Positions 2,798-32,191 of a stretch of DNA of 64,000 nucleotides are shown here, piece by piece. The stretch's first letter is position 1. Each line of letters starts with the position of its first letter. Source of the DNA: Nitrospiria bacterium (GTDB taxonomy: Bacteria; Nitrospirota; Nitrospiria; DASWJH01); the NCBI GenBank assembly GCA_036397255.1, contig DASWJH010000046.1:5020-69019 (forward strand). The letters are read 5' to 3'. The notes beneath the pieces were generated by a model. The model was given only the letters and a program-made list of their open reading frames with translations. It was not told the origin of the DNA and made no database searches. The position numbers and the translations under genes were made by a program.

Positions 2798-3006
2798 TTT
2801 TACTTTTCCCCTCATTTATAAGGAGCGGAAGGAGGAGGTAGAGTGTTCCCCCCTAACGCCTAACCCCTTACCCTTCACGTTTTTTTTAAAGAAAGCCTCA
2901 AACCTCTCGCCTAACGCCTTCCTTCTCACCCCTTTCGTCTTTTCAAAATAACCCCCTTACCCATCACCCATTCCCCCTCACCGGGTTTTTAATAGGGAAA
3001 CCTCCT

Positions 3007-3223
3007 AATCAATTTTCTTGAGATATATTAAGTATTTCAATATACTTTTGGAGAGGAAAAATATAAATCTAAAAAGATCTAAATTGCATGGCTGACCCCA
3101 TCACTGACCCCATCATGACCCCATAATCAATTTTCTTGAGATATATTAAGTATTTCAATATACTTTTGGAGAGGAAAAATATAAATCTAAAAAGATCTAA
3201 ATTGCATGGCTGACCCCATCACT
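3007..3223. repeat. Two-copy tandem direct duplication with a 118-bp period, plus three short gaccccatca microrepeats at the junction
   Basis: Segments 3007-3105 and 3125-3223 are identical (aatcaattttcttgagatatattaagtatttcaatatacttttggagaggaaaaatataaatctaaaaagatctaaattgcatggctgaccccatcact). The unit contains the inverted repeat AAGTATTTCAATATACTT. Confidence 0.9.
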
Positions 3224-4064: not shown

Positions 4065-4141
4065 GCCCCCGTAGCTCAGCAGGATAGAGCAGCGGTTTCC
4101 TAAACCGAAGGTCGCGTGTTCAAATCACGCCGGGGGCACCA
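4065..4141 (+). tRNA. tRNA-Arg (anticodon CCT)
   Basis: Cloverleaf parsed by hand: acceptor stem GCCCCCG/CGGGGGC, D-arm GCTC-AGCAGGATA-GAGC, anticodon arm GCGGT-TTCCTAA-ACCGA (anticodon CCT), variable loop AGGTC, T-arm GCGTG-TTCAAAT-CACGC, discriminator A and an encoded CCA. Confidence 0.85.
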
Positions 4142-10195: not shown

Positions 10196-11527
10196 ATGAG
10201 TGTTTTTAAGCAAGCTAACCAATTTCTTAGCAAAGACCTTTGGGCGAAACAAATTGAGACCCTTCCTCTAATGAAGAGGGTAACCTATCGGTGGCTCCGG
10301 CTTGGTGTGGTTGCTATTTCCGAGTTTCAGGAAACCGCCTTGAGTTTTCGCGCCACAGGACTGGTTTATATGACCCTGCTTTCCTTGGTTCCTTTTTTGG
10401 CGGTTATGGTTTCTGTCCTAAAAGCCTTTGGGGTACACCTTCAAATTGAACCGGTTTTGGCCCAGGCTTTTGAACCCCTGGGACCGAAGGGCGCTGAAAT
10501 TACCAGCCGTATTATCGGCTTTATCAGCAACCTCAACGTGAAGGTTTTAGGTGCCGTGGGAGTGGGAGGATTGTTTCTGACGACTCTGCTATCCATTAAT
10601 CAGATTGAACATGCGTTGAATGCGGTGTGGCGGGTTAAAAGACCCAGGCCTTTGGCCTGGAAATTCACCAATTATTTAAGCGTGATTTTGGTAGGCCCTG
10701 TATTGGTGTTCACCGCAATTGGGTTGACGGCTACCGCCCAGAGTCATTGGATCGTTCAGAAGGTTTTAGCGGTGGAATCGGTCGGTTTCCTCGTTGTTTT
10801 ATTTACCCGGTTAATGCCGTTTTTGTTCCTGTGCCTGGCGTTTACTTTTTTATATAAATTTCTTCCCTACACCGAGGTGAAATTAAAATCCGCATTGGTC
10901 GGAGGGATCACCGCCGGTGTTCTTTGGCAATTGGCTGGGATGGGATTTGCTTTTTTTGTGGTGGGGTCGGCAAAATATACCGCTATCTATTCCAGTCTCG
11001 CCATCCTCATTATCTTTCTCATTTGGTTGTATATTGCATGGGTGATTGTCCTTGCGGGAGCGCAAGTGGCCTATTTTCATCAATACCCTTATGCCTATTT
11101 AAACCAAATGAGTTGGAGGCAGGATAGTCAAACCAACCGTGAACGGCTGGGTTTGAACATTTTGGTTTATATTACCCAAAGATACCTAAAGGGGCTTTCC
11201 CCTTATGAAGAGAATGAACTCTCGCATGTTCTCAATGTTCCCTTATCGATATTAGAGGATTTAATTGAAAAATTTATCAGATCCGGGGTCCTTTGCCGAA
11301 CGCTAGAGCCGAAGGGAGTTATTTTAGGAAAACCCCCTGAACAGGTGTCTGTGGTGGAGGTATTGAATCTTATTCAAGAAGGGGATGGGCGAAGTGGTGA
11401 ATTTTTAGAAAAAGATAAAGATCAGGTTTCTTCGCTGCTCCGGAAAAGAGATCAAGCGGTGAAAGAAGAATTGGGACTGATTCATTTAAAATCTCTTGTG
11501 GAGGGAGAAAAAAAAGTTTCCCACTAA
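10196..11527 (+). CDS. YihY/BrkB family inner-membrane protein with a C-terminal soluble extension
   Basis: The typical YihY polytopic core is present (YMTLLSLVPFLAVMVSVLKAFG...). It is followed by an extra hydrophilic tail of about 150 aa. Confidence 0.7.
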   Translation: MSVFKQANQFLSKDLWAKQIETLPLMKRVTYRWLRLGVVAISEFQETALSFRATGLVYMTLLSLVPFLAVMVSVLKAFGVHLQIEPVLAQAFEPLGPKGAEITSRIIGFISNLNVKVLGAVGVGGLFLTTLLSINQIEHALNAVWRVKRPRPLAWKFTNYLSVILVGPVLVFTAIGLTATAQSHWIVQKVLAVESVGFLVVLFTRLMPFLFLCLAFTFLYKFLPYTEVKLKSALVGGITAGVLWQLAGMGFAFFVVGSAKYTAIYSSLAILIIFLIWLYIAWVIVLAGAQVAYFHQYPYAYLNQMSWRQDSQTNRERLGLNILVYITQRYLKGLSPYEENELSHVLNVPLSILEDLIEKFIRSGVLCRTLEPKGVILGKPPEQVSVVEVLNLIQEGDGRSGEFLEKDKDQVSSLLRKRDQAVKEELGLIHLKSLVEGEKKVSH

Positions 11528-14461: not shown

Positions 14462-17400
14462 TCAAATGTTCCCCACCAAAGGACGCATATGGAAAATTTT
14501 CCTCTTTTCCCATTTTTGAAATAAAAACCTTAAACCCATTAGGAAAGGAACAATAAACATTGCGATATCGACATCTCGGTTTTGGTTGTGGCGGGCATCT
14601 TTCACAAAACCGCATCCTCCTACTGCACTCCCCATATCAGAAATGGCTGAGCCTCCCGATTGGGAGGATACAGTTGGTGGCGGAGTGTTGGACCCCCCTG
14701 AACCCGGCTGAGGGGTGCCTTGGACGGTTACTGGGTTCGTTTGATAATTTCCTTGTCCGTCATAGGAAAAAGCAGAGTAATAATATGTGGTTCCATTTTG
14801 CAGCCCAGTGTGGATAGTACTCTGAACCTCATTGGGAACGCCCGTAAAATCTCCAAGTAATTGCCCATCGTTTACATTTTCAGGAAACCCTCCAGTTGTT
14901 TTGAATACAATTCGGGTCCCGATGTAATCGGGATCTGAAGGGCTCGTCCAGGTTAAGAGAATCTCCTGGTCATTTTCAAAGGCGGAAAATTTTTTGATTT
15001 GGCCGGGGGGAATTTGATCCGGTGCTTTTGGGGTTTTAAAAATTTGATCTAGCGATACCGAAAGATTTCCAGCAGTGTCTAAACTTCTGACCCGAAAATG
15101 GTAGGGAAAATCAGGGGTTAATCCATTGATTGTCATTGAATGGTCCAACATCATGGTAGCGTTAAAAGGGGTTGTGTTTTCGTAGTTTGTGGTTTGCCCA
15201 TATTCGATTTGTGAGGTTGCGGCCTCATTGGTAACCCAAGTGATCAGTATGGTGGTGTTGCTTAAAGAAGTTGTGTTAATGTTTGAAATAACCGGGGGAG
15301 TTTGATCCGGTAAAGAAAGGGTGTTAAAGGTTCCGTCATTCGATACAGAAAGGTTCCCCATGGCATCCATTGTCCGGATTCGAAAATGATAGGTTTTTAA
15401 AGAAGATAAACCAGAAAGGGTGACCTGATGACTCGTTTTTAGGGAAGAATCTAGATTTGATATAAATCCATAAGCGGAGGTTAAACCGAATTCAACTTGG
15501 GAAGTTGCGCCTTCATTAGTAGACCAGTTCACTATGGCACCGGAGCCTGTAATATTGCTGGTGTTGATTCCGGAAATGGATGGAGGAATGGTATCAGGGG
15601 GGGGAGAAGTTGTAAAGGTTTTGTCTGCTGACACCGCTTGGTTTCCAGCGGCATCCATGCTCCGTACCCGGTAATGATAGGTGGTTGATGAGGTCAACCC
15701 GGATAGAGATCTGCTGTGGCTGGTGACTAACGTGGAATTCAAGGCAGAGGTGGACCCATAAGCGGTGGTGGTGCCATACTCCACCTGTGAGGTAGCGCCT
15801 TCACCGGTATTCCAGGTAATGGTGGCGCTGGTGCTGGTGACGGACCCCTCGTTGATGGATGAAATAACAGGGGGGGTGGTATCGGGAAGGGGAGAAGTTG
15901 TAAAGGTTTTGTCTGCTGACACCGTTTGGTTTCCAGCGGCATCCATGCTCCGTACCCGGTAATGATAGGTGGTTGATGAAGTCAACCCGGATAGAGATCT
16001 GCTGTGGCTGGTGACTAATGTGGAATTCAAGGCAGAGGTGGACCCATAGGCGGTGGTGGTGCCATACTCCACCTGTGAGGTAGCGCCTTCATCGGTATTC
16101 CAGGTAATGGTGGCGCTGGTGCTGGTGACGGACCCCTCGTTGATGGATGAAATAACAGGGGGGGTGGTATCGGGAAGAGGAGAAGTTGTAAAGGTATTGT
16201 CTCCTGACACCGCTTGGTTTCCAGCGGCATCTATGCTCCGCACCCGGTAATGATAGGTGTTTGATGAGGTCAACCCGGATAGAGATCTGCTGTGGCTGGT
16301 CACCGGTGTGGAATTCAAGGCAGAGGTGGACCCATAAGACATGGTGGTGCCGTATTCCACTTGGGAGGTCGCCCCTTCATTGGTTGACCATGTGATGACC
16401 GAGGCCGAACTTGAAATATTGCTAGCAGTTAATCCGGAAATAACAGGGGGGGTGGTGTCGGGAGCGGGGAGTGTGGTGAAGGTATTATCCGCTGAGGTGG
16501 CCAGATTACCGGCTGCATCGGAACTTATGACCCGGTAATGATAGGTGGTTGATGAGGTCAACCCGGATAGAGATCTGCTGTGGCTGGTCACCAGCGTGGA
16601 ATTCAGTGCCGAGGTGGACCCATAGGACATGGTGGTGCCGTATTCCACCTGGGAGGTAGCGCCTTCATCCGTTTTCCAGGAAATGGAAACGCTGGTGCTG
16701 GTGACGGAACCTTCTGCAATGGATGAAATAACGGGAGGAGTGATATCGGGAGCGGCAAGTGTGGAAAAGGTATTATCGGCAGAGGTGGCCAGATTTCCTG
16801 CCCCATCTCTGCTCAATACACGGTAATGATAGGTGGTTGATGAGGTCAGTCCGGATAAGGCTCTGCTGTGGCTGGTCACCGGTGTGGAATTCAGTGCGGA
16901 GGTGGACCCATAGGCCGTTGTGGTACCATATTCCACCTGGGATGTTGCGTCTTCATCCGTATTCCAGGTTATTGTAGCGTTGGTACTGGTGACGGAACCC
17001 TCTGTGATAGATGAAATGACAGGAGGGGTGGTATCCGGGGGGGAAGTCGTCGTAAATGTGTTATCCCCAGAATTGCCAAGGTTTCCTACATTATCTCGGC
17101 TTAAAACTCTAAAATGGTAAACGGTTGAAGGCAGTAGTCCACTTAAATCTTGGCTATGGGAAGTAACCAGCGTATTGATTAGGCTGGTTGTAGAACCATA
17201 GGCGGAACTGGTCCCATATTCAATTTGAGTACTGGAAGGTTCGTTTGTTACCCATGTAATGGTTGCCCCATTATTGCTGATACTAAGGGAGGAAATATTT
17301 GAAATGGCGGGTGGGGTAGTATCCGGCGGATTTAATGTGATGAAGGTATTATCTCCCGAAATGGCCATATTTCCTGCTACATCCTGACTGACAACCCGGT

Positions 17401-17929
17401 AATGATAGGTGGTAGAGGGGGTAAGGTTACTCAGGGATCGGCTATGGTTTGTGGTTAGGTTTGAATTGATCGGTGTTGATGAACCGTAATTTGTGGTTAC
17501 CCCGTAATCCACCTGGGATGTTGCCCCTTCATTAGTCGCCCAAACAATGTCCACGCTAGAGCTGCCCATATTGACGGCAGATATCGATGAAATGGCAGGT
17601 GGAGTTATATCCCCGAAACTTTTATTCACCTCGATTGAATAAGGACTTTCATTACCTCCAAAATCATAAGCGGTGACCGCAAAAAAGTAGGTTCCCAAAC
17701 CCAATCCAGTTACGGTGTAAGAGGTCTGGTTCCCAACATCCATAGGGGGACTGTAGGTTCGAGAGGCGGTCCCAACGTAAACTTTATATCCTGCCAAATC
17801 GGGTTCGGTATTGGCATCCCAGCTGAGAAAGGCGTCTCCTGCATAACCCAAGCGGGAAAGTGCTAAAAACACAAATATGAATAAGGTGAGTTTAAAAAAA
17901 CAGGATAATGAGCTTGAAAATTTCATCAT
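14462..17929 (-). CDS. Giant secreted FN3-repeat surface protein (adhesin-like, about 11 tandem fibronectin type III-like modules)
   Basis: Signal peptide MMKFSSSLSCFFKLTLFIFVFLALSRLGYA. Roughly 96-aa modules recur, beginning DTTPPVISSI..ATITWNTDEGATSQVEYGTT.AYGSTSALNSTLVTSHSRSLSGLTSSTTYHYRV. The C-terminus has a G/S/P-rich linker, a GGCG motif, then a hydrophobic helix and a basic tail (IAMFIVPFLMGLRFLFQKWEKRK), which resembles a sorting signal or membrane anchor. Confidence 0.85.
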   Translation of the reverse strand: MMKFSSSLSCFFKLTLFIFVFLALSRLGYAGDAFLSWDANTEPDLAGYKVYVGTASRTYSPPMDVGNQTSYTVTGLGLGTYFFAVTAYDFGGNESPYSIEVNKSFGDITPPAISSISAVNMGSSSVDIVWATNEGATSQVDYGVTTNYGSSTPINSNLTTNHSRSLSNLTPSTTYHYRVVSQDVAGNMAISGDNTFITLNPPDTTPPAISNISSLSISNNGATITWVTNEPSSTQIEYGTSSAYGSTTSLINTLVTSHSQDLSGLLPSTVYHFRVLSRDNVGNLGNSGDNTFTTTSPPDTTPPVISSITEGSVTSTNATITWNTDEDATSQVEYGTTTAYGSTSALNSTPVTSHSRALSGLTSSTTYHYRVLSRDGAGNLATSADNTFSTLAAPDITPPVISSIAEGSVTSTSVSISWKTDEGATSQVEYGTTMSYGSTSALNSTLVTSHSRSLSGLTSSTTYHYRVISSDAAGNLATSADNTFTTLPAPDTTPPVISGLTASNISSSASVITWSTNEGATSQVEYGTTMSYGSTSALNSTPVTSHSRSLSGLTSSNTYHYRVRSIDAAGNQAVSGDNTFTTSPLPDTTPPVISSINEGSVTSTSATITWNTDEGATSQVEYGTTTAYGSTSALNSTLVTSHSRSLSGLTSSTTYHYRVRSMDAAGNQTVSADKTFTTSPLPDTTPPVISSINEGSVTSTSATITWNTGEGATSQVEYGTTTAYGSTSALNSTLVTSHSRSLSGLTSSTTYHYRVRSMDAAGNQAVSADKTFTTSPPPDTIPPSISGINTSNITGSGAIVNWSTNEGATSQVEFGLTSAYGFISNLDSSLKTSHQVTLSGLSSLKTYHFRIRTMDAMGNLSVSNDGTFNTLSLPDQTPPVISNINTTSLSNTTILITWVTNEAATSQIEYGQTTNYENTTPFNATMMLDHSMTINGLTPDFPYHFRVRSLDTAGNLSVSLDQIFKTPKAPDQIPPGQIKKFSAFENDQEILLTWTSPSDPDYIGTRIVFKTTGGFPENVNDGQLLGDFTGVPNEVQSTIHTGLQNGTTYYYSAFSYDGQGNYQTNPVTVQGTPQPGSGGSNTPPPTVSSQSGGSAISDMGSAVGGCGFVKDARHNQNRDVDIAMFIVPFLMGLRFLFQKWEKRKIFHMRPLVGNI
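15450..17000. repeat. Near-identical 288-bp tandem DNA repeats inside the adhesin CDS
   Basis: Shadow ORFs 15739..15942 and 16027..16230 are about 95% identical and sit 288 bp apart. The encoded FN3 modules 5-7 are nearly identical at the protein level. Confidence 0.8.
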
Positions 17930-17948: not shown

Positions 17949-18068
17949 AAAAAAAAACCGCCAAAGACTTTTCCCCTTTGGCGGCTCGGCGGGCATTTGA
18001 TCCCTGAGGGATCATTAGCCCCGGTGCTCTGCGTCACCACCTTTCGATGGATTTGCTCTGAGCAAAGG
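17949..18068 (-). promoter_or_regulatory. c-di-GMP-I (GEMM-I)-type riboswitch, copy 1 (proximal to the adhesin start), with an intrinsic terminator
   Basis: Minus-strand RNA: CCUUUGCUCAGAGCAAAUCCAUCGAAAGGUGGUGACGCAGAGCACCGGGGCUAAUGAUCCCUCAGGGAUCAAAUGCCCGCCGAGCCGCCAAAGGggaaaagucUUUGGCGG-U9. It matches the GEMM-I core remembered from V. cholerae Vc2 (..GGGCAAACC AUUC GAAA GAGU GGGACGCAAAGCC UCCGGCCUAA..): GCAAA(c/u)C, a 4/5-bp P2 capped by GAAA, the J2/3 GACGCAGAGC, and a P3 with CUAA. The terminator is a perfect 9-bp stem plus U9, and its 5' arm CAAAGG could alternatively form P1 with the 5' CCUUUG. Confidence 0.7.
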
Positions 18069-18192: not shown

Positions 18193-18312
18193 AAAAAAAA
18201 CCGCCAAGGATAGTTTTCCTTTGGTGGCTCGGCGGGCATTTGATCCCTGAGAGATCATTAGCCCCGGTGCTCTGCGTCTCCACCTTTCGATGGGTTTGCT
18301 CTGAGCAAAGGG
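18193..18312 (-). promoter_or_regulatory. c-di-GMP-I (GEMM-I)-type riboswitch, copy 2, with an intrinsic terminator
   Basis: Minus-strand RNA: CCUUUGCUCAGAGCAAACCCAUCGAAAGGUGGAGACGCAGAGCACCGGGGCUAAUGAUCUCUCAGGGAUCAAAUGCCCGCCGAGCCACCAAAGGaaaacuauCCUUGGCGG-U8. The core is identical to copy 3. The terminator stem has one mismatch and one bulge. Confidence 0.7.
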
Positions 18313-18391: not shown

Positions 18392-18507
18392 AAAAAAGCC
18401 ACCAAAAAGAATCCTTTGGCGGCTCGGCGGGCATTTGATCCCTGAGAGATCATTAGCCCCGGTGCTCTGCGTCTCCACCTTTCGATGGGTTTGCTCTGAG
18501 CAAAGGG
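18392..18507 (-). promoter_or_regulatory. c-di-GMP-I (GEMM-I)-type riboswitch, copy 3 (promoter-proximal), with an intrinsic terminator
   Basis: Same aptamer core as copy 2. The terminator is GCCGCCAAAGGauucUUUUUGGUGGC followed by a U-rich run (9 bp including one G.U pair). Confidence 0.7.
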
Positions 18508-27864: not shown

Positions 27865-28341
27865 GTGAAAATCCCAATTACCAAAAATGGGTATGAACAG
27901 TTATTAAAAGATTTGGAAAGACTTAAACGGGTGGAACGTCCAAAAGTCATCGAGGCCATTGCAGAGGCTAGGGCCCATGGCGACCTTTCTGAAAATGCAG
28001 AATATGCGGCGGCCAAGGAACGACAATCATTCGTTGAAGGAAAAATTCAAAATCTTGAGAATAAAATATCGGAGGCTCAAATCATTGACACAAAAAATCT
28101 CTCAAATGAAAAAGTGGTTTTTGGTACCACCGTTGTTCTCAAGAATACCGAAACCGATGAAAAAAAGCGTTTTACTTTGGTAGGCCAAGAGGAGGCTGAT
28201 ATCAAAAAAGGGGAAATTTCAGTCCAATCTCCCGTTGGAAAAGCCCTGATAGGACACAAGGTGGGAGATTGGGTAACCATTGTTACCCCCTCTAAAACCG
28301 TGGAATATGAAATCCTTGAAATTGGGTTTGACAGGTCCTAA
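27865..28341 (+). CDS. greA: Transcription elongation factor GreA
   Basis: Coiled-coil N-terminus and an FKBP-like C-terminal domain. The motif GDLSENAEYAAAKERQ is present. Confidence 0.9.
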   Translation: MKIPITKNGYEQLLKDLERLKRVERPKVIEAIAEARAHGDLSENAEYAAAKERQSFVEGKIQNLENKISEAQIIDTKNLSNEKVVFGTTVVLKNTETDEKKRFTLVGQEEADIKKGEISVQSPVGKALIGHKVGDWVTIVTPSKTVEYEILEIGFDRS

Positions 28342-29149
28342 AATACAACAACCTGTTCCCCTTATTACCCTCACCACCGACTTTGGAACAGACGGAATTT
28401 TTGTGGGGTGTATGAAGGGGGTAATCTATGGAATTAACCCAAAGGTTAATATTGTTGATATAACCCACTCTATTGCTTCCTATGATAGGGTTGAAGCGGC
28501 ATTTCTAGTTAAATCTTTCTCTGGGGATTTTCCCTCCTCCTCCATTCATATCGTTGTTGTAGACCCGGGAGTAGGAAGCGCCAGGAAACCCTTACTTATT
28601 CAGACGGTTCATGGTCTATATCTAGGTCCCGACAATGGGGTTTTTACTCCCATCCTGATGGAGGGGAAGCCGAGGGTCCGGGAAATTACCCAAAAACGGT
28701 ATTTTCGCCCTGCAATTGGGGCAACCTTTCACGGAAGGGACCTTTTTGCCCCCGTAGCGGCATGGCTTTCAAAAGGTGTCCCCCCCCAGCAAATGGGTCC
28801 AATCTACCCAAATCCCATGACCATTTCCATTCCGAAACCAGAAAGGATTCGATCCAATCGTATTAAAGGGATTGTAATGTATATTGATCATTTTGGAAAT
28901 CTAATCACAAATATAACATGGAAAAATCTGGAACAATTGGTTGGTTCCAATGTTTTTGAAAAAATCCATGTAAAACTCTCTGGAAGAGATTATGGTGTTT
29001 TAAAAAAAAACTATTCAGAGACACCGGAAGGTAAAGTAGGGGCTCTAATGAATAGTTTTGGAGAATTGGAGGTATTTTGCTACAAGGGCAATGCCCAAAA
29101 ACGGTTACGATTGAAAAAGGGGTCTTCGGTTGAGGTATTCAGGGTTTAA
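28307..29149 (+). CDS. SAM hydroxide adenosyltransferase / SAM-dependent chlorinase-fluorinase family protein (DUF62)
   Basis: Motifs ITLTTDFGTDG, VVDPGVGS and DHFGNLITN are present. The start is ambiguous: ATG at 28307 (overlaps the greA 3' end by 35 nt) or TTG at 28328. Confidence 0.75.
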   Translation: MKSLKLGLTGPKIQQPVPLITLTTDFGTDGIFVGCMKGVIYGINPKVNIVDITHSIASYDRVEAAFLVKSFSGDFPSSSIHIVVVDPGVGSARKPLLIQTVHGLYLGPDNGVFTPILMEGKPRVREITQKRYFRPAIGATFHGRDLFAPVAAWLSKGVPPQQMGPIYPNPMTISIPKPERIRSNRIKGIVMYIDHFGNLITNITWKNLEQLVGSNVFEKIHVKLSGRDYGVLKKNYSETPEGKVGALMNSFGELEVFCYKGNAQKRLRLKKGSSVEVFRV

Positions 29150-29553
29150 AAAAAAAGTTTTCCTAAATTAAAAGAGGTTTTAATTACCATCTTTTGGACA
29201 AATTTTTATTTTCTTTAGATTTTCCGATAAAAATACCCTTGCCTAAGGAAGAAACCCCTATGTTTGAAACCTTTCAATTCCTCCCGATTTTCGAATCGCT
29301 TAGCACCCACCCCTTCTATTGAATCATTTCTTAAAGGAAGAAAGCGGTCTTTTAGAGCCTCCCATCACTTCATTGGAATCCAAGCCTGAAGGCATGTGGA
29401 GCGTTCTAATTTAACAGAATCAGGAATCCATCCCCATTTTATTAGCATTTGCCCAATGGTTAAAATAACTTGGTGGTTTTTTGTTTTCAGGCTAAACTTG
29501 AATAAAGGAAAGAGCCATTCTTTTGTTCGATTAAATTATTCTAGAGGTAAAAC

Positions 29554-30444
29554 ATGGTTGTTTTGGATCGAAAATCCTTATATTCGTTTTTTTTAATATT
29601 AATGGTTTTTGGGCATTTTTTTGAGGATTCGGTTAGGGGAGAAACCCTTAAAATTCATTTGACAGCATTGGATAAAACCGTAAAGGTTGCAAAAGGAGAA
29701 TCTTATAAAGCCTGGACTTTTGAGGGGTTTATTCCCGGGCCAGTGATCCGGGTCAAAGAGGGGGATGAGATTGATTTTATTTTTGAAAATAAGGGTTCTA
29801 TCGCCCATTCAATTGTTTTACATGGAGTGATAACGCCTCCCGATCAAAATTTTAGAAGTGTGGGGCCAAAGGAATCGGTTTCCTTTACCTGGAAAGCCGA
29901 ATTTCCGGGCGTATTTTTATACCATTGTGGAACCTCACCCACATTCCAACACCTTGCCAATGGGATGTATGGTGCTCTGATTGTAGATCCCACAGAGCCC
30001 AGGGAAAATGCAAGAGAAATTGTTTTAGTACAAAGTGAATTTTATTCCTCCCCCCGGAATGTTCACGGAATGCTGAATGGCGAAGCCCGGTTTGTCGTTT
30101 TTAATGGGTATATGAATAAATATGTAGAAACCCCGATAGAAGCGCAACCCGGGGAGCTTATACGGTGGTATGTTCTAAATGCAGGCCCAAACTTTTTCTC
30201 TTCCTTTAATTTGGTGGGGGGGATGTTTTTAAAGGTTTTTGAGAATGGGAACCCCAAACACATAAAAGAAAATGTTCCCCTTTGGACCCTTCCCCCAGGA
30301 GGGGGAGCCATTTTTGAAACACGTTTAAAAGAGGAGGGTGTCTATTCTTTCAAAACCCACGCTTTGGCTGATTCATATCGGGGGGGGATAGGTTTTATTC
30401 GAATTTCAAAAGAAGCAGGTCCCCCTGGGGCCCTTATGCCCTGA
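29554..30444 (+). CDS. NirK-family two-domain cupredoxin protein (copper nitrite reductase-like); function uncertain
   Basis: The alignment to A. faecalis NirK (from memory) is clear. [23 protein letters not shown] matches [30 protein letters not shown] matches [31 protein letters not shown] matches [35 protein letters not shown] matches YAYLNHNLIEA. T1Cu ligands (H, C, H, M) and T2Cu ligands (H, H, H) are conserved, but catalytic Asp98 is replaced by Leu and His255 by Asn. The N-terminus is a TM helix or signal peptide. Confidence 0.6.
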   Translation: [296 protein letters not shown]

Positions 30445-32191
30445 AATAAGGAGTATTTCTTATCTTTAAGGTCCTGATTCGATTAAGCGCCTGGGAGAAT
30501 TCCATTTTTCGGGGAAGGGCATAGTCTCCCCGCTGAAAGGGAGTTAACATATCAAAGCTTTTGGTGTTCAACTCATCAAACATTCTTTGAATTCCCTCCT
30601 TAATAGGTAAATCTTCATTTCCAAAATGTCTTATAAAATAAAAAATCATATCGGCGATTGCCTTGGTTTGTCCTGTTTCAACCAATTGTTCCAAGTGGGT
30701 TAAATCGAGAATGCGGTTTCCAATCCGAAGGGTTTTCAATCCCATCACTTTAATTTTACCTTTTTCTTTTACGTCTCTTCCCAATAGGCTTTCCAATAGG
30801 GGAACCCGGGGTTGAAATACACCAAAAATTTCCCCTCCTTCAGGCTTTCGTGGATGGGAACGTTGTTTGACAATTTCCTTAGACTTTTTTGTTACGTCTT
30901 TTGGGCTGTAATGGTCCATCATGATAACCTGATCTGCCACGGAAAAATAATCTCCCGATCCTCCAGAAATAAGAATGGTTGAGACCCCATGGTCACGGAA
31001 AAGGAGACGGACTTTGTCCAAAAATGGTGTGATGGGCTCTTTTTCTTTGGGAACCAACGACTGCATCCATTCATCCCGAACCATAAAATTGGTGGCACAG
31101 GTATCTTCATCCATAAGAAGGAGCGAAGTACCGATTTCGAGGCTTTCCATAATATTGGCTGCCTGAGAGGTACTGCCACTGGCATTTTCGGTTGAGAATG
31201 ACTCGGAAGGCTGACCGAAGGGGAGGCGGTTGATAAATGGAGAAAGGTTTACCTTAATAATAGATCTTCCTTCTTCTGCTCGGATTTTTATGGCATCTTC
31301 GACGGATACAATATTTTCCCGACCATCTCCTGGAATATGGTTATAAACACCTCTTTCAAGGGCCCTCAGGAGGGTAGATTTTCCATGAAAACCTCCTCCC
31401 ACGATTAAAGTAATGCCTTTGGGAATTCCCATTCCTTTTATAGGTCCTTTATTTGGACGAATTAATTCAATTTCCTTCTCGGGGGGCGAGTTGAAGAAAA
31501 TAATATTTCGGCTAACATCCAAAGGACGATCATCAATACCAGACCTTCTCGGTAAAAGGGATCCTTTTGCCACAAAGGCAACCAGGCCATTGGGTAATAA
31601 CTGGTTGCGTAAGGCATCGGAATCATCCCCCGTTTCAACATGGTCCAAACATTCGACTTGATTGAGGCTTTCATAAAAAAGAGAGGCATAAGCCATTCGG
31701 GGAATTTCCTCCAAAAAAATTCTAATGGCTTCATCCCCAAGAATTTTTCGACCTGAGGCTGGAAGCCTAACAAAAAACCGTACCTCTAAACGATCTATAG
31801 AAATGTTTACGGCTGATCTCTTTAATATTTCCTGACCCCCTGATTCAATGGCAATGGTGTGACCCCCAAAGGTCTCACGGGTCTGTGTAGGAGGAAGGTG
31901 AATTGATTTTGAAAATTGCCTGCCAATATAATCTTCCAAAGCGGTTTGTCTTGAAGCATTTCTAAAAAGAGTTAGGGGAAAACCTGCAACCCTTTGAGAG
32001 ACTATGATGCGGATTCTTGAAGGTGCGGCGAATGGATCCGCCTGTACATGGTCAATGATCAGGGAATACCGTGTAAATTGATAATCTCCTTTAATTTTTT
32101 TAAAGGCTTTATATCCTTTTCCATCAATTTGTTCTAAAATGAATTTCAAGTCCGTTGGCAGCTTCAAAGGACACCTTATTTGAGATGACAC
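30434..32191 (-). CDS. Predicted ATPase of the ABC class (COG3044 / PF09818-like), stand-alone
   Basis: Walker A GGFHGKSTLLRAL and Walker B LLLMDEDTCATNF in a 585-aa soluble protein with no transporter partner nearby. Confidence 0.55.
   Translation of the reverse strand: MSSQIRCPLKLPTDLKFILEQIDGKGYKAFKKIKGDYQFTRYSLIIDHVQADPFAAPSRIRIIVSQRVAGFPLTLFRNASRQTALEDYIGRQFSKSIHLPPTQTRETFGGHTIAIESGGQEILKRSAVNISIDRLEVRFFVRLPASGRKILGDEAIRIFLEEIPRMAYASLFYESLNQVECLDHVETGDDSDALRNQLLPNGLVAFVAKGSLLPRRSGIDDRPLDVSRNIIFFNSPPEKEIELIRPNKGPIKGMGIPKGITLIVGGGFHGKSTLLRALERGVYNHIPGDGRENIVSVEDAIKIRAEEGRSIIKVNLSPFINRLPFGQPSESFSTENASGSTSQAANIMESLEIGTSLLLMDEDTCATNFMVRDEWMQSLVPKEKEPITPFLDKVRLLFRDHGVSTILISGGSGDYFSVADQVIMMDHYSPKDVTKKSKEIVKQRSHPRKPEGGEIFGVFQPRVPLLESLLGRDVKEKGKIKVMGLKTLRIGNRILDLTHLEQLVETGQTKAIADMIFYFIRHFGNEDLPIKEGIQRMFDELNTKSFDMLTPFQRGDYALPRKMEFSQALNRIRTLKIRNTPYFRA

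Follow-up and report, generated by a model that had tools for sequence, protein, structure and literature searches.

Our analysis of a 64,000-nucleotide (nt) stretch of DNA from a Nitrospiria bacterium (contig DASWJH010000046.1 of assembly GCA_036397255.1, positions 5,020 to 69,019 of the forward strand; here referred to as the window) revealed a gene for an unusual relative of the copper nitrite reductase NirK. The gene, taken from the list of open reading frames (ORFs), occupies positions 29554..30444 on the plus strand, starts with ATG, ends with the stop codon TGA at 30442-30444, and encodes a NirK-derived two-domain cupredoxin of 296 amino acids (aa). The Pfam domains Cu-oxidase_3 and Cu-oxidase_2 were found in this protein, and its top NCBIfam model was TIGR02376, copper-containing nitrite reductase. 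The protein retains all ligands of the type 1 (T1) and type 2 (T2) copper sites but carries neither the catalytic aspartate nor the catalytic histidine of this enzyme family.

A previous reading of the letters alone, here referred to as the sequence-only reading, had assigned the protein to the NirK family, and this assignment was borne out by the Pfam domains and by the matches to solved structures. In a phmmer search, the best matches in the Protein Data Bank (PDB) were the NirK of N. europaea (4kns, E value of 7e-53) and several Geobacillus NirKs (3wia, 3wkq, and others, E values of about 1e-52), whereas the two-domain multicopper oxidase 3gdc matched far more weakly (2e-27). A monomer model built with AlphaFold2 (AF2) on a 100-sequence alignment reached a mean confidence (pLDDT) of 91.8 and a pTM of 0.87. 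The best 50 PDB matches of this model in Foldseek were all copper nitrite reductases, with TM scores of 0.79 to 0.88, and its comparison with the Geobacillus and N. europaea enzymes (GtNiR and NeNirK) gave TM scores of 0.82 to 0.88 and root mean square deviations of 1.6 to 2.0 Å. An identity as a two-domain multicopper oxidase was ruled out, as the protein lacks the H-x-H and HCH motifs of those oxidases and matches 3gdc more weakly than the NirKs.

The phylogenetic position was examined in a bootstrapped neighbor-joining tree with corrected distances, not a maximum-likelihood tree. The window protein belongs to a clade comprising P0001, P0002, P0003, and P0005 (the Val clade), which received 100% bootstrap support, or 72% when P0004 was added. 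The Val clade grouped with a sister group of short canonical NirKs (74%), followed by the Nitrospira-type NirKs, and thus nests inside the clade II NirKs and does not cluster with two-domain multicopper oxidases, a placement that would have spoken against the sequence-only reading. The gene has its origin among the Nitrospirota copper nitrite reductases of clade II (class II, 'SSFHV' type). Its clade evolved at an accelerated pace, with mean distances to six outgroups of 1.01 to 1.04 versus 0.74 to 0.79 for all sisters, including P0004. On TIGR02376 (cut-off of 296.3 bits), the window protein scored 133 bits and the Val clade 133 to 145 bits, that is, 40 to 65 bits under the canonical class II sisters (182 to 201 bits). 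The cut-off itself has no diagnostic value within clade II, since the canonical class II sisters also fall below it.

Copper ligands and replaced catalytic residues

Alignments, checked at the level of codons, showed that the T1 ligands (H85, C125, H133, and M138) and the T2 ligands (H90, H124, and H269) are all present, just as the sequence-only reading had proposed. The sensor-loop segment at 29806..29829 (plus strand, like all segments described here) reads H85-S-I-V88-L89-H90-G91-V92; it contains T1 His85, a valine at the position of the catalytic Asp, T2 His90, and Gly-Val in place of the Ala-Ala of relatives. The segment at 29923..29967 holds H124 and C125, which form the Cys-His electron wire between T2 His and T1 Cys, as well as H133 and M138; these four columns were invariant in 183 of 183 close relatives aligned, P0004 excepted. 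At 30208..30216, the residues N219-L220-V221 place an asparagine at the catalytic-His position of the 'SSFHV' motif and a valine at the Ile(CAT) position, in agreement with the earlier call of Asn (SSFNLVGG versus SSFHVVG and SSLHPIAG). The earlier claim that the catalytic Asp is replaced also held. Its identification of the replacement as Leu did not, because HSIVLH aligns with HSMDFH without gaps, so that Val88 stands at the Asp position and Leu89 against Phe99.

These residue calls came out the same whether the protein was paired with 4kns or 3wia in HMMER, aligned by MAFFT with sets of 122 and 184 sequences, or placed by hmmalign among 149 family representatives, and none of the alignments recovered a shifted Asp or His. 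Both residues are conserved in all copper nitrite reductases (CuNiRs) and required for enzymatic activity (PMC6608623). Asp was kept in 180 of 184 close relatives and 139 of 149 family representatives, and the catalytic His in 182 of 184 and 139 of 149, respectively. Sequencing or assembly error was ruled out by agreeing independent assemblies, as Val88 and Asn219 recur in 12 contigs from four sources (also P0121 and P0122).

The surroundings of the catalytic His are altered as well. At 30271..30282, column analysis revealed N240-V-P242-L243 in place of the conserved G-V-Q-T, and Pro242-Leu243 occupy the positions of GtNiR Gln267/Thr268, which in the two proteins lie +23/+24 from the catalytic-His position. 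In GtNiR, the Nδ1 atom of this His is held by a bifurcated hydrogen bond that reaches both the hydroxyl of Thr268 and the carbonyl of Gln267, and the Gln267 side chain is hydrogen bonded to the T2 ligand His100 (PMC4846774); Gln267/Thr268 have been proposed to be a proton switch that is redox coupled and holds the proton on the catalytic His (PMC12221283). With Val88, Asn219, and Pro242-Leu243 in these places, the acid, the base, and the second shell of the base are therefore all replaced. A screen across about 180 close relatives for columns in which every clade member departs from a residue conserved to at least 90% outside the clade returned L77F, D88V, A91G, A92V/I, P178A/S, G240N, Q242P/S, T243L/F/I, and V267K, and 58 of 72 family-conserved columns were retained. 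Collectively, the protein has the two-cupredoxin fold, the T1 and T2 ligands, and the phylogenetic placement of a NirK but has neither of the two catalytic residues (Asp and His) nor the Gln/Glu-Thr pair, and we therefore class it as a derivative of NirK and do not count it among the NirK enzymes.

This combination is rare in the family. All six His/Cys ligand positions were kept in 121 of the 149 family representatives, and only 4 of those lacked Asp or His (two oxidase-like proteins, one with Glu, and one with Asn), none of them lacking both. Among NirK-family proteins that keep all His/Cys ligands, we also observed P0437 (494 aa), in which Asn takes the place of the catalytic Asp and residue 267 is Glu, and P0402 (322 aa), with Glu at both the Asp and the Ile(CAT) positions. 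The searchable literature yielded no description of a NirK variant of the kind found in the window. The study that defined the 'TRPHL / SSFHV' motif with the catalytic His admitted sequences to its NirK datasets only if both the catalytic Asp and His were present (PMC4770552). Since large NirK surveys select on catalytic motifs (PMC4770552, PMC10999283), they would hide such a variant.

The column screen also pointed to a gained residue. At 30352..30360 lies K267-T-H269, a lysine fixed in the clade and placed two residues ahead of T2 His269; in the AF2 prediction, both residues lie on one β-strand (E262-270) in an i/i+2 arrangement. Among the other NirKs sampled, position 267 is always V, L, M, or I, and oxidase-like relatives have the His of an H-x-H motif there; outside the clade, Lys was found there in none of 149 family representatives and none of 94 genomic loci, with the clade's own contig set aside. 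In the oxidase-like loci L098 and L099, positions 88/90, 219/221, and 267/269 all form H-x-H motifs paired with T2 ligand positions, and positions 88, 219, 221, and 267 would therefore face the inter-subunit metal cavity. A search for literature support of a pocket role of the corresponding Val304 in the A. faecalis enzyme (AfNiR) found none, and strand geometry and H-x-H homology were used instead. Judged by these two lines, Lys267 probably faces the metal cavity, and the pocket, deprived of the acid on one side, would carry a new cationic lysine on the other.

A cationic pocket residue raises the question of whether the protein is still a genuine nitric oxide (NO)-forming nitrite reductase, in which the Lys267 ammonium group would bind nitrite and donate a proton in the place of Asp98 and His255, while water would supply the second proton. 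In unrelated nitrite reductases (siroheme nitrite reductase, NrfA, and cd1 NirS), nitrite is bound and supplied with protons by cationic Lys, Arg, or His residues, and this precedent favors such a mechanism, as do the intact copper ligands and Cys-His wire, the fixation of Lys267 in all four clade members, its uniqueness in the family, and its predicted cavity-facing position. Furthermore, nirK is carried by most Nitrospiria (PMC11033732), which makes retained function the default expectation. Against this, four separate elements of the canonical mechanism have been lost together, and the conservative D98N substitution alone costs about 100-fold of activity and scrambles nitrite binding (PMC12221283). 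Moreover, positions 219 and 242/243 are unfixed in the clade, so that the lysine would have to be the sole conserved alternative network. We consider a lysine-assisted nitrite reductase unlikely.

Members, selection, and rarity of the clade

The closest relatives of the window protein were P0002 (82% identity), P0003 (64%), P0004 (59%), and P0005 (85% over half its length), after which identity drops to about 50%. Val88, Gly91, Asn240, and Lys267 are common to P0001, P0002, and P0003 (64 to 100% identity), and P0005, encoded at locus L004, has Asn240, Lys267, and a Ser/Ile version of positions 242/243. Position 219 is N, H, G, and H in P0001, P0002, P0003, and P0005, respectively. The C-terminal ...GALMP tail is conserved in the clade and shared with the canonical sisters. 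Two members of the wider group are damaged in their copper sites. The P0005 gene (L004, 2397-3104) has lost 61 codons in frame, and with them six of the seven copper ligands, while its reading frame stays open; its retained parts are 85% identical to the window protein, and no convincing microhomology was found at the deletion junction. P0004 (L005, 269-1102) keeps Asp, His, Gln-Thr, and Val and has a tyrosine at the T2 His124/135 position (FNYYCGT). It is the nearest outlier of the clade, is not accelerated, and is known from a single 1.2-kb contig, in which an error is possible. Among the 184 close relatives, all active-site lesions fell in the P0001-P0005 group, apart from a truncated sequence and a case that is probably misaligned at its C-terminus.

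The scatter of these changes could mean that the protein is a catalytically dead pseudoenzyme, whose scaffold is kept for T1 electron shuttling, for copper binding or buffering, or for a structural or partner role, and whose T2 pocket is no longer constrained. The T1 region is untouched and the T2 shell bears most of the replacements; positions 219, 220, 221, 242, and 243 vary in the clade, yet they are 94 to 100% conserved in close relatives. The tyrosine at a T2 ligand position of P0004 points in the same direction, as does P0005, which has lost its copper-ligand segment and still retains an open frame and the promoter block described below. Relaxation of constraint, however, leaves unexplained why V88, G91, N240, and K267 stayed fixed across saturated synonymous divergence (dS of >1.7 to locus L003) and why the three T2 histidines are retained in every full-length member of the Val clade. 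We thus regard a pseudoenzyme as a rather improbable outcome, albeit one to be reckoned with.

Estimates by the Nei-Gojobori method gave ratios of nonsynonymous to synonymous divergence (dN/dS) of 0.14 both between the window and locus L001 (dS of 0.73) and between L001 and L004 (dS of 0.34), the latter comparison involving the deletion variant; synonymous sites were saturated in comparisons with L003 (dS of >1.7) and L005. Because dN/dS is about 0.14, the ORFs are intact, and a promoter-like block and the ribosome-binding site (RBS) are conserved, the gene is maintained by purifying selection. The catalytic-site changes arose on one accelerated branch and have been followed by purifying selection since. 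These values bear directly on the idea that the gene is a relic nirK heading to loss in a lineage that no longer needs nitrite reduction, with the substitutions as early decay. The clade is indeed very rare, and five sequences of the wider group each carry a different active-site lesion, including the 61-codon deletion. Nevertheless, decay is at odds with the low dN/dS, with ORFs that remain intact at 64 to 82% amino acid identity, with the conserved promoter-like block and RBS, with the 58 of 72 family-conserved columns kept, and with the confident AF2 model, and we regard it as very improbable.

The rarity itself was assessed in several collections. No clade members were detected among 185,579 GTDB species representatives, in which the best match was 48% identical and canonical, and a scan of metagenome contigs of the Joint Genome Institute (JGI) returned only the already-known L003 contig. 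A word search with the clade profile revealed no further members, and when 1.84 billion cluster representatives were searched exhaustively with a profile, the window protein alone was recovered (635 bits), with the next match at 278 bits.

Gene layout and neighborhood

The sequence upstream of the gene contains an RBS (AGAGG, 29543..29547, plus strand) 6 to 7 nt ahead of the ATG, the GAGG of which is retained in L001, L004, and L003. Further upstream, 56 to 84 nt before the ATG, we identified the block TTGGTG-17 nt-TAAACT (29470..29498, plus strand). Its hexamers and spacing are the same in the window, L001, L004, and L003, while the spacer itself has diverged, and the block is kept in L004 although the upstream context there differs. 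It is probably a sigma-70-type promoter that travels with the gene, an assignment made with low confidence. A scan for consensus promoters and terminators gave only chance-level matches and missed this block, whose −35 hexamer matches the consensus at 3 of 6 positions.

The N-terminus had been described by the sequence-only reading as a transmembrane or signal anchor. It is indeed hydrophobic, but it looks like a cleavable Sec signal peptide and not like a membrane anchor. Residues 1 to 29 (29554..29640, plus strand) comprise MVVLDRK, a hydrophobic core, and VRG|E, with neither a twin-arginine motif nor a lipobox, and AF2 predicted a helix at residues 6 to 23 with lower pLDDT. Cleavage probably occurs after VRG29, as ETLKIHL, where the mature protein would begin, lines up with the first residues of the solved NirK cores and, among the sisters, with their AxA-type sites. 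The short length of the protein, also pointed out earlier, proved not to be distinctive, since canonical sisters that have both Asp and His measure 291 to 296 aa.

Downstream, the gene converges with an ABC-class ATPase gene, as had been proposed (30434..32191, minus strand; ABC_N / ABC_ATPase / MRB1590_C, PF20446/PF09818/PF21117), with 11 bp shared between the 3′ ends. The neighbor itself is not distinctive, and synteny comparison gave no evidence of a functional link between the two genes. Upstream lies a gene for an S-adenosylmethionine (SAM) hydroxide adenosyltransferase/(R)-SAM hydrolase-like protein (28280-29149, plus strand; PF01887 and PF20257), which scored 144 bits, well below the NCBIfam equivalog cut-off of 350. 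The order SAM hydrolase-like gene, nirK-like gene, and ATPase gene is kept only in L003 and not in L001 or L004; in L004, a DUF4258/DUF2283 pair adjoins the P0005 gene where the SAM hydrolase-like gene would be. The canonical sister NirKs lie in unrelated genomic contexts.

The remaining neighbors in the window are housekeeping genes (the pyr operon, greA, lepA, pyrG, purH, and aspS) together with TPR and LysM/SLT genes. Neither denitrification, NO-detoxification, nor regulator genes were found among the genes near the nirK-like gene, and FNR/NnrR-type boxes upstream stayed at chance level (68 matches versus 62 expected); these results count further against the lysine-assisted reduction of nitrite. 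The window contains no second nirK copy. The G+C content of the nirK-like gene and that at third codon positions equal those of its neighbors. Recent horizontal transfer is accordingly unsupported, and the gene is native to the genome. The host LepA is about 74% identical to that of Candidatus Manganitrophus/Manganitrophaceae and about 71% to that of Nitrospira, with closest relatives at 84 to 91%.

Elsewhere in the window, we observed three tandem c-di-GMP-I riboswitch aptamers (RF01051) on the minus strand at 17977-18067, 18220-18310, and 18415-18505, scoring 51 to 52 bits versus a gathering score of 35. They lie directly upstream of the gene for a 1,155-aa protein (14462-17929, minus strand) with about eight purple-acid-phosphatase-N/fibronectin-III repeats and DUF4998; this gene contains a fivefold 288-bp tandem repeat (15589-17035) and is of higher G+C content (0.495). 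It is unusual to find a triple aptamer ahead of so large a surface protein built of repeats. About 850 bp upstream of tRNA-Arg(CCT) (4065-4141) lies a direct repeat of 118 bp (3006-3223), which is perfect, spans 1.8 copies, and includes a 12-bp CTGACCCCATCA sub-repeat. Finally, a BrkB-family membrane protein (10196-11527, plus strand) gave a weak C-terminal Rrf2 match (26.5 bits, below the cut-off of 30) and may represent a fusion with an Rrf2 domain.

Proposed explanation and comparison with known systems

The residue patterns suggest, with about an even chance of being right, that the gene encodes a functional two-copper NirK-derived protein, the T2 pocket of which has been remodeled away from canonical nitrite reduction. 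The putatively secreted protein would keep its two-cupredoxin fold and would still assemble into a homotrimer with two coppers bound per subunit. Electrons would enter at T1 and pass via the Cys125-His124 wire to T2, where efficient canonical reduction of nitrite to NO would no longer be performed. The pocket, with an apolar face where Asp would sit and a cationic one across from it, may have been retuned to bind another ligand or to put the reduced copper to another use; candidate ligands would be small neutral molecules (e.g., O2 or NO) or an anion other than nitrite.

Several observations weigh against such a remodeled copper protein. The drift of position 219 within the clade and the variation at 220-221 and 242-243 also fit a pocket that is no longer used, and the loss of the copper-binding segment in P0005 implies at least one lineage in which the gene either can be spared or has no catalytic role. 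The clade is tiny, consisting of three full-length sequences and one deletion variant. The Thr at position 243 is less universal in the family (T in 85, A in 25, and V in 14 of 149 representatives), and its loss weighs less than that of Asp or His. In favor of remodeling, replaced conserved columns were concentrated around T2 (10 of 19 columns, versus 4 of 53 elsewhere; Fisher p of about 1e-4), an enrichment absent in all ten control relatives, but the T2 windows were drawn from sequence neighborhoods after part of the pattern had been seen and not from three-dimensional distances. Lastly, the genomic context of the nirK-like gene in the window yields no functional clue.

A more specific version of the remodeled T2 site can be offered only tentatively. 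It holds that, in a Nitrospiria lineage that branches deeply and does not nitrify, the Asp/His/Gln-Thr relay was re-engineered into an apolar wall (Val88, Leu89, and Leu243) plus Lys267, allowing either lysine-based nitrite reduction or a new specificity (e.g., for O2, NO, or another small oxyanion of N or S). The earlier alternative of a divergent nitrite reductase or a recruited copper protein fits the evidence, and the sequence data are compatible with both.

Given that Asp(CAT) and His(CAT) are regarded in work on CuNiRs as universal and indispensable, a variant maintained by selection tests which parts of the site matter for what. The clade is labeled 'nitrite reductase (NO-forming)' at JGI, and surveys that include it in their tally of nitrite reductases probably err. 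In the same vein, where nirK is counted from homology alone, Nitrospiria lineages would be assigned a potential for denitrification or NO formation that they probably do not have, an error that a check of the Asp and His columns (PMC4770552) corrects. The clade also offers a case of active-site remodeling within a lineage, with an accelerated stem and later purifying selection, in which P0004 and P0005 hint at repeated loosening. Its importance is limited by its tiny size, the lack of a functional handle, and the uninformative context.

Among known systems, the two-domain multicopper oxidases (type C, 3gdc) and the L098 and L099 proteins share the two-cupredoxin architecture, the T1 site in domain 1, and, as predicted for the window protein, a trimeric assembly with an inter-subunit metal site faced by positions 88 and 267. 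However, trinuclear-cluster oxidases have four H-x-H/H-C-H motifs with eight histidines, whereas the window protein has HSIVLH, YHCG, FNLV, and FKTH and only the three NirK-type T2 histidines. L098 (421-1170), L099 (10001-10750), and L100 (3587-3982) encode NirK-like two-domain cupredoxins of about 31% identity, with HTH at Asp98/His100, HLH at His255/Ile257, HPH at Val304/His306, YHCD instead of HCH, and a leucine axial to T1; from these motifs, they look intermediate between NirK and the trinuclear-cluster two-domain oxidases.

GtNiR (3wia, 3x1e, and 3wkq) and NeNirK (NE0924, 4kns) resemble the window protein in fold, in 36% sequence identity, and in a short core with no extra domains, and they have the same T1 (H, C, H, and M) and T2 (three His) ligands, Cys-His bridge, and 'SSF-x-V' frame. 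They differ in that their Asp98 is replaced by Val88, His244/255 by Asn219, Gln267-Thr268 by Pro242-Leu243, Val292 (AfNiR Val304) by Lys267, and the Ala-Ala/Val after T2 His100 by Gly-Val. The nearest neighbors are the Nitrospirota-type short NirKs (P0133, P0135, P0007, P0134, and P0006, as well as P0025 of Nitrospira sp. KM1) at about 50% identity, which have the same length range, a Sec-type N-terminus, and a similar ...ELMP/...PLMP tail. Unlike the window protein, they have kept Asp, His, Gln-Thr, and Val, are not accelerated, and lie in other genomic contexts.

The AfNiR D98N and H255N and GtNiR D98N mutants (9kws, 9kwu, 9kwt, and 9kwv) are like the window protein in that they lack the catalytic acid and/or His and keep both coppers. 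In the D98N mutants, the roughly 100-fold drop in activity is accompanied by nitrite bound in several scrambled modes (PMC12221283), and by analogy these mutants are the best experimental proxy for the loss of Asp and His. The mutants, however, carry single, conservative, laboratory-made substitutions, whereas the window protein has an apolar valine, changes in both catalytic residues and in the second shell, and an added lysine, all of them maintained by selection.

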